Of a DNA stretch of 64,000 nucleotides, positions 49,120 through 51,858 are shown piece after piece. Source of the DNA: Parachlamydiales bacterium. GTDB taxonomy: Bacteria; Chlamydiota; Chlamydiia; Chlamydiales; Rhabdochlamydiaceae. The position numbers and the translations under genes are program-made. The stretch lies in contig OY970065.1 in NCBI GenBank assembly GCA_963705295.1, positions 1,152,001 to 1,216,000 of the forward strand, read 5' to 3'. The notes under the pieces were generated by a model. It was not told where the DNA came from, made no database searches, and saw nothing but the letters and a program-made list of their open reading frames with translations. The number at the start of each line of letters is the position of its first letter. Position 1 is the stretch's first letter.

Positions 49120-51858
49120 ATGCCAGGAATTCCACATTCATTTCATGATAATGATTTGAAAGATAAAATCGAAGATTTATGTCGGATTCCAGAACTTAAA
49201 AAGTTTGCATCTAAGAAACCAAGGGGGAAATTTCTCTTTGTTGTCATTTTAGTGCTTTTTACGTCGGTTTTGATCGGATTTATTCTTTTAAAAACACAGC
49301 CCACTGAAAAGTACTTCTCGTATCTTAAAGGACCATTGCCCGATTTCATTGGAAGAGAAAAATACCTCGAAATTTTACATAGAGATTTATTGCAAAAAGA
49401 TTTTCACAATAACCTCCACATCAAAATCGTGTGGGGAAAAGGGGGAATGGGTAAAACGGAACTGGCTAGAGAGTTTGCCTATCGATATCGCTCCAATTTT
49501 TCTTTTATTTGGACATTTTATTGCGACAATCAGGAACAAATTGACCAAGGTTATCGTGATCTCGCAAAAATGTTAAATATTTTGAATCCTCAAGATAGTC
49601 TAAACAGAATAAAAGAAGTCGTTCATTTGTATCTTGAAAATCATCCTTTTAAGCGGCCTTGGCTCCTTATTTATGACAATACTGAAAAAGAATTTTCTTA
49701 TCCTCAAAGAGGGGGATCGATTTTAGTCACTTCCCAATTACAACTCCTCAATCCGGAATTTCTTTTAGAGGTTGAACCTTTTTCTCAACAAGAATCTCTA
49801 GAACTTTTAGAAAAAATCACCTCGGAAAAAAAAGGGAAACCGATGGAGCTTCTAGCTCATGATCTAGAGTATCTTCCTATTCTGATCAATTACGCGGGCC
49901 ATTACATTAAATCGACACCCGGTTGTAATACATCTGAGTATCGGAAGCTCTTCTCCGAGCGTCTTATTGGAAAAGAAGGTCCCCTTTGGATAGAGATGGA
50001 TGTCAATCTAAGATACGTAAAAAGCTTGGCAACTTCTTGGCAGCTTTCATTGAATTCTTTAGAAAAAACGAACCCTCTTGCCATCCAATGGTTATTTCTT
50101 TGTAGTTATCTTTATCCGGAACATATCTGTGAAAAATGGATCGATGATTGGCTGATGGATAAAATGCCAGACAAGACCCAATCGATTGTTTTGGAAAGAA
50201 AAAAAATATGGAAAATCCTTCAGAATCGAGGTTTGGTAAGCTATGAGGATAAAACGAAAACCTTCTCCATTCACCGATTTCTGCAATTTATTATTCGTGA
50301 AAATAGGAAAAATCATCTTGAGGCAGACTTAAGCCAAGCGATATCTACCTTAGTCAATAATGCTGAAGGTTCCCTATTCTTAGATCAAATCTTATGGGAA
50401 GAAGCCAATTTTTGGTACTACCATGCATGCGAGGTCCGAAAATGGCTGCTCCAATGCAACCTTCCATCGTGGAGTCATAAAGACAAAAAAAATTGTTTTC
50501 TTCTATTCAATGCCATAGCCGATTGGTGCAACTCAAATTCCCATTTTGAAGAGGCCCTATTAAGCTTCGAAAAATGTCTCAGTTTTAAACCAGAAATTCT
50601 TGCTGAGAACTCTCCAGAAATTGGTAGAGTTTACAGCCAAATGTCTTGGACTTTGTTTATTTTATTTCGACGGAAAGAAGCTCTCAATACATGTCAAAAA
50701 GCTGAAGAGATTCAGCGTGTTTTTTCAGGAGATGCCGTTTTACAGTATGCTGAAACACTCGAATTTATCGGATTTTTTCTAGCACGAAACGAAAAACATG
50801 AAGAATCATTAGGATATTATAGACGGGCTCTTAAAATTCATCTGGAAAGTCTTGGTTGGTTTGGGGACATAGAAAATAACCTTGACTCGATGCTTAAGTA
50901 CATCAAAGAAATCGGTAAACAAATCACTTCTTTCGATAAAGAAGGGCATCACTCAGAAGCCCTAAAATTATGTGACAGGATCATTAGAATAGGTATCAAC
51001 TTAGTCAAAATTGCCAGATCTCTCGTGATCGTTGACAATACGACTATTAACCCGACATGCAAAAAAGAGACAAGATGCGTAAGCGAACCCCTGTCAGATC
51101 GAAGCGTCAGCGGTCCGACCGACGAGGATCATAGCCGACAGGCTAGGCCGAGGAGGAGGAACGATCTGTCAGGGGTGCAGCCAGCAGGTTGTCTCTTTTT
51201 TGCGTGGAGGGTTAATAAAGCACAAGAATTTAGTGAAAAAGCATTTGAGATTTTTCAAGAAAGTCGCAGAATCAAGCCTCTTTCTTTTCCTTCTGGCTTA
51301 GTTTCACGGTGGGCTCCTTTTGCTTTAGTCTATCAAGGGTGGTGTTGTTCTAAATTAGGAAAATACCGCGAAGCTGAGAAGTTCTATAAAAAAGCTTTAT
51401 CACTGTCGATGTCGCTATTCGGGAAAAATCACAGAGACCGCGCGCATATCTTGAATGAAATTGGCATGAGCTACTTATGGACAAATAATTTCAAGGAGGC
51501 ACGAAAAGTTTTCAGATTGGGCCTTAAACAAAATGAAGGAAAAATAAATTTTAGTACCATTGAAGCTTATAAAATCATCGGACAGACCTATATCAAGGAA
51601 GGAAGAATTAAAAAAGGACTAAAATATCTGTTAAAACCGATCCAGGCATGTGCCGAAGCTGGTCAAAACCCGGCCATGCTCGCAACCCTTTTAGAACTCT
51701 TTCATTCTACCCTTAAAAATATTCCGAATCAGAAAGAATCGGTGCAAGATGCTGCTCTTATAGCCTACACTCTTAGTAAGGAGGCTTTTGGCGAAAGTCA
51801 CCCGCTTTCAAACGCGTTTTTCGTAATTTTTCGAGATAGAGATAAAGGACCGGGGTGA
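49120..51858 (+). CDS. Membrane-anchored NB-ARC (STAND) NTPase with TPR repeats
   Basis: TM FLFVVILVLFTSVLIGFILL, FIGRE, Walker A GKGGMGKTELAREFAY, Walker B WLLIYDN, ILVTS, MHD-like IHRFLQ, then TPRs. Confidence 0.85.
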   Translation: MPGIPHSFHDNDLKDKIEDLCRIPELKKFASKKPRGKFLFVVILVLFTSVLIGFILLKTQPTEKYFSYLKGPLPDFIGREKYLEILHRDLLQKDFHNNLHIKIVWGKGGMGKTELAREFAYRYRSNFSFIWTFYCDNQEQIDQGYRDLAKMLNILNPQDSLNRIKEVVHLYLENHPFKRPWLLIYDNTEKEFSYPQRGGSILVTSQLQLLNPEFLLEVEPFSQQESLELLEKITSEKKGKPMELLAHDLEYLPILINYAGHYIKSTPGCNTSEYRKLFSERLIGKEGPLWIEMDVNLRYVKSLATSWQLSLNSLEKTNPLAIQWLFLCSYLYPEHICEKWIDDWLMDKMPDKTQSIVLERKKIWKILQNRGLVSYEDKTKTFSIHRFLQFIIRENRKNHLEADLSQAISTLVNNAEGSLFLDQILWEEANFWYYHACEVRKWLLQCNLPSWSHKDKKNCFLLFNAIADWCNSNSHFEEALLSFEKCLSFKPEILAENSPEIGRVYSQMSWTLFILFRRKEALNTCQKAEEIQRVFSGDAVLQYAETLEFIGFFLARNEKHEESLGYYRRALKIHLESLGWFGDIENNLDSMLKYIKEIGKQITSFDKEGHHSEALKLCDRIIRIGINLVKIARSLVIVDNTTINPTCKKETRCVSEPLSDRSVSGPTDEDHSRQARPRRRNDLSGVQPAGCLFFAWRVNKAQEFSEKAFEIFQESRRIKPLSFPSGLVSRWAPFALVYQGWCCSKLGKYREAEKFYKKALSLSMSLFGKNHRDRAHILNEIGMSYLWTNNFKEARKVFRLGLKQNEGKINFSTIEAYKIIGQTYIKEGRIKKGLKYLLKPIQACAEAGQNPAMLATLLELFHSTLKNIPNQKESVQDAALIAYTLSKEAFGESHPLSNAFFVIFRDRDKGPG
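51045..51217. mobile_element. ~170-nt palindromic element inserted in frame in the TPR region
   Basis: Termini TATTAACCC/GGGTTAATA. Arms GCAAAAAAGAGACAA/TTGTCTCTTTTTTGC and CCCCTGTCAGATCG/CGATCTGTCAGGGG. GC-rich within an AT-rich gene. Removing 171 nt restores the TPR helix. Confidence 0.85.

Follow-up and report, generated by a model that had tools for sequence, protein, structure and literature searches.

A candidate IS630-derived MITE family with a copy in frame inside an NB-ARC/TPR gene of a Parachlamydiales bacterium

An NB-ARC/TPR gene of a Parachlamydiales bacterium carries in its reading frame a 173-nt palindromic element, one of 70 two-ended copies in the genome. We regard it as likely that the element is a MITE of IS630 type, that its in-frame position reflects survival by filtering, and that it is read through as a tolerated loop, as predicted from its sequence and from a structural model. 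The window analysed here is a stretch of 64,000 nucleotides (positions 1152001–1216000) of a one-contig, 2.13-Mb genome (G000, contig C1), which is 94.7% complete and encodes an ATP/ADP translocase, a feature that fits a chlamydial lineage.

The element is best explained as a non-autonomous MITE of an IS630-family insertion sequence, given its IS630-type ends, its TA flanks with a preference for TTAA and its presence at 70 or more sites. It would have been moved in trans, by cut-and-paste and with duplication of the TA, by an IS630 transposase that the genome has since lost or had acquired only for a time. Most insertions into genes would break them and be purged. A copy would survive inside a gene only if its length is a multiple of three, if the phase it lands in is open (that giving IN(P)...RVN in nearly every case) and if it has no stop codon. 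All of this is true of the copy at 51045, the lack of a stop owing to a private T-to-C change. In one of ten paralogous genes, it seems to have entered a TPR repeat at the turn that joins helices A and B. The mRNA would then be translated straight through, and the 57 residues would form a mostly disordered surface loop that is probably tolerated rather than useful.

The element and its host gene

The host ORF has no internal stop in its 912 codons (Table 1). Its NB-ARC/AAA matches are weak, and TPR repeats are present. The ten NB-ARC/TPR (NLR-like) genes of the genome are the one in the window and those at C1:297158, 608335, 611213, 703358, 773380, 775939, 1603773, 1665773 and 2094817. Copies of the MITE family sit just upstream of the starts of two of them (608097 and 775775). 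Elsewhere in the window, a ~1.3-kb tandem duplication of ~80% identity (43380–45890) adjoins a leucine-rich-repeat ORF.

The element starts with TATTAACCC and ends with GGGTTAATA. Its initial annotation as a GC-rich hairpin in an AT-rich gene is borne out by a GC content of 53.8%, against 38.5% over the complete host ORF, and by a fold into a single long rod of −93.7 kcal/mol (z = −11.2; none of 200 shuffles as low). The insert, INPTCKKETR...CLFFAWRVN, contains no stop codon. Because no true orthologue of the host gene was found (the 14 matches besides the protein itself are TPR proteins, 22–38% identical), paralogues were used for comparison. The C-terminal regions of seven of the nine paralogues were aligned, and all seven display a gap of exactly 57 columns opposite the insert, in agreement with the 57 added codons originally proposed.

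The AlphaFold model of residues 424–912, built on an eight-row alignment, has a mean pLDDT of 80.7, and the modelled fold of this C-terminal part matches LGN-type TPR solenoids. The insert is placed between the TPR helices at model residues 188–217 and 266–295, with the flanking helices near a pLDDT of 90. Model residues 218–265 have a pLDDT below 50, which is partly expected since no alignment row covers the insert, and the last ten residues of the insert prolong the second helix.

Table 1. Features of the window discussed in the text
Feature	Coordinates	Strand	Basis
Host gene, 912 aa: N-terminal hydrophobic stretch, NB-ARC/AAA-like NTPase, TPR solenoid; nine paralogues	49120..51858	+	ORF, domain and paralogue searches, fold match
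MITE copy, type B, 171-nt net insert, both TA copies included	51045..51217	.	Sequence, fold, family profile
Left TA, target site or its duplicate	51045..51046	.	TA at both ends in 62/71 two-ended candidates; protein gaps
Right TA, target site or its duplicate	51216..51217	.	TA at both ends across candidates; protein gaps
Left terminal inverted repeat, 29 nt with TA	51045..51073	+	24/29 and 25/29 identity with the two L037 IS630 ends
Right terminal inverted repeat	51189..51217	-	24/29 and 23/29 identity with L037 IS630 ends
Small internal stem-loop, variable loop (here GACA)	51132..51145	+	Fold and family comparison
Insert codon 32: CAG (Gln) here, TAG in four other 171-nt type-B copies	51139..51141	+	Copy comparison
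57 inserted codons, host residues 643–699	51046..51216	+	Translation, paralogue gap; pLDDT <50 over most of insert
Unrelated hairpin, two-copy family, outside this MITE family	36695..36869	.	BLAST, fold, alignment against shuffles

The hairpin at 36699, at first taken for a sister copy, proved to be unrelated. It is strong in its own right (z = −13.5) and has no BLAST similarity to the element; 300 shuffles reached their local alignment score 36 times, and the highest score obtained with any of the 71 family candidates is about the same (20 against 19). Together with C1:926004–926178 it makes up a two-copy hairpin family of 96% identity, the window copy starting right at a stop codon. The real sisters of the element at 51045 lie outside the window.

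The element family and its candidate mobiliser

An end-profile search of the genome returned 71 two-ended candidates, or 70 copies after removal of an overlapping duplicate (1563584–1563745), so the element does have the further copies expected of a mobile one. Besides these, there are 20 unpaired end matches, a few of which belong to further diverged copies. TA is found at both ends of 62 of the 71 candidates; a T stands before it in 52 and an A after it in 48, which makes TTAA the preferred target of the family. The copies are 159–207 nt long and have two types of interior, A (41 copies, mostly 159–163 nt) and B (29 copies, 170–207 nt); the longest product that any of them could encode is 69 codons. 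Their 29-nt arms match at a mean of 27.1 of 29 positions over the 70 copies. Arm positions 11–17 differ between subfamilies yet stay complementary, in copies that are related rather than independent. In one copy (C1:686812–686973), the sequence of the inner right arm has become an almost perfect complement of the left arm, which suggests templated arm conversion as a source of the covariation between arms.

The product of an AbiEii-family gene is 53 residues longer through a 161-nt copy; these residues are missing in 25 of 25 aligned homologues (the best 25 of 119), exactly so in 24. Since the net insert equals the element length minus 2 both here and in the 57-residue gap opposite the 173-nt copy, only the TA is duplicated, and the mobile palindrome with a TA duplication described at the outset stands. 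No empty site was found at the DNA level in G000. The family has the marks of a MITE: its members are short with terminal inverted repeats, have a target-site duplication and are dispersed in many copies without a transposase.

Other identities were considered for the element. A self-splicing intron or IStron was rejected on the basis of the Rfam search, in which no group I/II ribozyme core or other family was significant (four chance-level matches, none near the gathering score). An attC/integron-like reading, prompted by the TAAC...GTTA ends, was dropped in view of the symmetric arms, the duplicated TA and the existence of an IS630 with the same ends. REP/RAYT elements, which are 20–40-bp palindromes with a GTAG or CGTC tag next to a Y1 transposase, do not match either, the ends here being TA-flanked 29-nt terminal inverted repeats; Y1_Tnp matches G000 only at 631488, in a short, broken fragment that has no family copy in its vicinity.

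The family also occurs outside G000. Eight of the 301 genomes searched in the order, G000 among them, contain the end pattern; the eight belong to two families, and a reversed control gave no matches. The insert peptide finds matches in 13 of the 129 genomes of the bacterial family. A GTDB scan returned at least 94 stretches, and among the matches listed, the two-ended ones whose titles name a taxon are labelled as Chlamydiae, Rhabdochlamydiaceae, Parachlamydiales or ‘Verrucomicrobia’ MAGs.

One of the 39 distinct two-ended matches listed outside G000 is a complete insertion sequence (L037, in genome G231). It is 1,120 nt long, flanked by TA, and encodes a 345-residue protein that scores 209 bits with the NCBIfam model transpos_IS630 (cut-off 100), matches the Pfam DDE_3 and HTH models and has a DDE triad (WGDE / LDNLKVH / NPDE). 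Its ends are identical to the arms of the copy at 51045 at 23–25 of 29 positions; the best agreement among other G000 copies is 26 of 27. Related transposases are present in 7 of 300 genomes searched in the order and in 2 of 129 searched in the family. Those of G396, G008, G270 and G288 (65–75% identity to that of L037) are of IS630 type and bounded by the same end motif, and IS630 elements with terminal repeats of the MITE family (27–29 nt) are thus known from five related genomes. The transposase frame is intact in L037 and in G396 (L211) and broken or split in G008, G270 and G288. Four transposases at 39–44% identity with readable ends have different ends, one of them with the same first 8 bases. 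In G288, one IS630 is inserted into another copy of itself (L177).

The link to IS630 that had been proposed from the TA duplication is strengthened by these elements. Of the anticipated transposase with matching ends, the five related genomes provide examples and G000 provides none: searches of its 94.7% complete sequence with DDE_3, DDE_Tnp_1 and the L037 protein gave no match. Conversely, a pattern search found no MITE copies in G231, the carrier of the intact insertion sequence. The GC-rich interior of the MITE has no BLAST similarity to the interior of the insertion sequence, so the MITE is not a simple internal deletion of an L037-type element. With neither a matching transposase in G000 nor an interior match, it is the shared ends that point to an IS630-derived MITE and to mobilisation in trans by an IS630 transposase. 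G000 also encodes three tyrosine recombinases.

Several further observations concern the family and its genome. The small stem-loop of type-B copies (51132–51145 in the window) has G-N-A or G-N-N-A loops in 13 of the 16 copies that have the stem. Seven loops are 4 nt long, and GNRA does not occur among them; this pattern suits single-stranded DNA mini-hairpins better than RNA tetraloops. A 24-nt end remnant (L029, C1:1949518–1949541) lies in frame within an intact-looking ORF, which we take from its motifs to be phosphopantetheinyl-transferase-like, with two more lone ends within ~1.3 kb on either side; it is perhaps the footprint of a decayed insertion. In genome G310, an element with the ends of another palindrome family is nested inside a copy of this one (L058); the G000 palindrome that represents this other family has different ends and has in common with some members of the present family only an internal hairpin module. 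A self-BLAST of G000, in which 101 repeat intervals were inspected by eye, contains at least four further families of small hairpin repeats (e.g. C1:455246, 560940, 1094666, 1278167 and 1492847; 881284, 954156, 1357511 and 1538534; 187409, 747833, 1810435 and 2042137), and G000 is for this reason unusually rich in MITE- or REP-like elements.

Copies inside genes

Five copies in G000 are in frame in intact ORFs, namely in the NB-ARC/TPR gene, the AbiEii-family gene, a gene for a 718-residue protein with no Pfam match, an arylsulfotransferase gene and, near the gene start, a GMC oxidoreductase gene. Homologue gaps were examined for three of these (NB-ARC/TPR, AbiEii and arylsulfotransferase, the last missing its insert in 9 of 9 homologues). 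Five further in-frame cases come from other genomes. One is a glycosyltransferase (L104), the single clear case among the 39 listed two-ended matches outside G000. The other four, found among 13 of the 19 peptide matches outside G000, are mraY in G358, a MenE-like ligase in G021, a PP2C-like phosphatase in G334 and a secreted protein in G015; since the peptide query may favour in-frame copies, they serve as examples and give no rate. The mraY with the insert is the only one found in G358, a genome 87% complete. In the G000 orthologues the inserts are absent; the gap is clean in mraY and the ligase and less sharp in the other three. In line with the initial annotation, homologues lack the peptide, and the 57-residue insert is absent from every homologue examined.

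Some six or seven G000 copies disrupt genes. An ankyrin-repeat gene has two of them and a Fic-like gene one or two; another is in a malic enzyme gene, and two lie just downstream of start codons. The split genes were called by ORF geometry and homology, and a weak dicodon model flagged only two mid-gene copies. When all TA sites are weighted by target preference under a crude gene model, ~90% of the possible insertions into coding sequence would either disrupt the frame or introduce a stop; insertion ‘exactly in frame’, as first described, is therefore not supported as a property of the element. In-frame survivors amount to 5 of ~64 (~8%), compared with a neutral expectation of 22–33% (binomial p 0.007 at 0.20). 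Because in-frame copies are rarer than expected and gene-breaking copies exist, in-frame placement is the result of selective survival, not of targeting.

Two of the affected genes have a more complex layout. In the malic-enzyme gene (L069, C1:1794343–1795713), which holds a 182-nt copy, similarity to a homologue ends just before the element and a short tail follows it, which suggests a deletion beside or between elements. The arylsulfotransferase gene (L025, C1:1453194–1455107) carries two copies; one is the mid-gene copy in frame, and the other, near the gene start, shifts the frame yet supplies a new in-frame ATG.

Five type-B copies, that at 51045 among them, are 171 nt long in net insert, and codon 32 is TAG in four of them and CAG only in the one at 51045, the T-to-C exchange being one of just three private changes. 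An unlikely reading of the copy at 51045 is that it shares the MITE origin and sits in a silent or dispensable gene, with an open frame by luck and a peptide that is barely made, for example because the hairpin terminates transcription. There are nine paralogues, and the insertion is recent, as its 98% identity to a sibling indicates, so that the intact frame does not prove that the gene still works. Because the changed base belongs to a loop that varies naturally, a stop-free donor may have arisen by drift. The 3' arm of the element also has a terminator-like site (51177–51192; eight sites in the region against 2.7 in shuffles) that could shorten transcripts, and 35–36 of the 70 copies lie at or within 10 nt of the 3' end of an ORF of at least 100 codons; such a site may be relevant for copies that follow genes and is probably masked by ribosomes inside a translated gene. 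Luck is, however, poorly compatible with an open frame being left by only ~7–10% of random coding insertions, with 13 of the 15 type-B copies of 3n length being closed by a stop in this frame (two are open), with the lack of any other stop over the length of the host ORF and with the modelled position of the insert in an inter-helix turn.

It seems very improbable that the family is an adapted peptide donor, targeted in frame by design or with its peptide recruited, for instance to alter binding by the NLR-like TPR sensor. Such a role could be read into the single reading phase of nine of the ten in-frame cases (six genomes), the four in-frame copies among nine 159-nt type-A copies with a common 1-nt loop deletion, and the 84 residues that mraY of G358 tolerates and mraY of G000 lacks. 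However, the shared phase, IN(P)...RVN, follows from a stop codon within the element end itself, which closes phase 0 in 70 of 70 copies; the most frequent length, 160 nt with 18 copies, is one that shifts the frame; copies in frame are fewer, not more, than expected; and the insert does not recur in the homologues examined. Least probable of all is removal or bypass of the element at the RNA level, by splicing or a ribosome hop over the hairpin to give a normal TPR protein, as the initial annotation had allowed: pairing of the ends does give a highly stable rod, in which the flanks come to lie close to each other, but no Rfam match approaches the gathering score, frame and stops would not matter and yet mid-gene copies in intact frames all have 3n length and no stop, the other mid-gene copies lie in broken genes, and the family stop has been lost exactly at 51045, a loss that would be needless in a spliced or skipped element and so favours translation.

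Filtering of insertions followed by read-through thus remains the reading we prefer. A tentative and more specific version of it is that the insertion first knocked out the last TPR repeats through its built-in TAG and that the T-to-C change was then selected, restoring read-through and fixing a 57-residue loop in the sensor domain of an NLR-like receptor, and that translated loops of the same origin have been acquired across environmental chlamydiae, even by core enzymes such as MraY. If this were true, a route from selfish DNA to a new protein segment could be rebuilt in the laboratory.

Relation to known palindromic elements

The family is a new family of IS630 MITEs that behaves like the Rickettsia palindromic elements (RPEs), as the initial annotation supposed for a chlamydial lineage: recurrent in-frame insertion into unrelated proteins is seen in five genes of G000 and five elsewhere. 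NCBIfam contains RPE and WPE models. The 73-residue stretch holding the insert has no NCBIfam match, and the RPE/WPE models find nothing in the five host proteins at E 0.1; the family appears to work like RPEs, with no sequence homology to them detected by these models. No paper on a chlamydial MITE of this kind was found in the literature searched, which included few subscription journals; the insertion sequence itself may already be named.

The comparison draws on passages of PMC10969869, PMC3733652, PMC2759123, PMC2229807 and PMC4853749. RPE-1 to RPE-10 (Ogata et al. 2000, 2002, as summarised in PMC10969869, PMC2229807 and PMC3733652) are palindromes of ~100–170 nt in an intracellular bacterium, located in frame in unrelated and sometimes conserved proteins, to which they add a recurring peptide. 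The present elements are alike in this. They differ in that ~7% of copies are in frame, compared with the ‘nearly half’ given for RPEs in PMC10969869; in that they regularly duplicate the TA, a feature marked as uncertain for RPE in Table 1 of PMC2229807; and in that the type of parent transposase can be identified, which according to PMC2229807 (2007) had by then been achieved for RUP alone.

RUP of Streptococcus pneumoniae, according to PMC2229807, is 107 bp long, intergenic or located in IS genes, and has stops in all six frames. Like RUP and IS630-Spn1, the present family is a TA-inserting MITE linked to IS630 by the similarity of terminal repeats, the same type of indirect evidence as in that source. 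Unlike RUP, its members are 159–207 nt long, have open frames and survive inside host genes. With Correia/NEMIS and ERIC/RU-1, as described in PMC2229807 and PMC2759123, it shares TA ends, long stem-loops, ORF fusion and C-terminus replacement, and in both cases coding ability varies with length (107 versus 155 bp for Correia, 159 versus 160 nt here). By those descriptions, the elements differ in lineage and ends, and mid-domain in-frame insertions, including that in mraY, are prominent here. With the IS630 family (NCBIfam NF033545), the MITE shares the TA target duplication and the 27–29-nt ends of the five chlamydial elements; unlike them, it has no transposase gene.

In-frame insertion of palindromes has been described in Rickettsia and in other bacteria, and the reviews consulted name no mobiliser of RPEs. 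The RPE-like outcome is here tied to a specific type of IS630 with intact members, which makes the origin of protein-coding palindromes testable. A family of 70 young copies allows a tally of both survivors and casualties, and this tally speaks for selective filtering rather than targeting. For the annotation of environmental chlamydial genomes, such inserts are misleading, since they lengthen proteins and replace C-termini.
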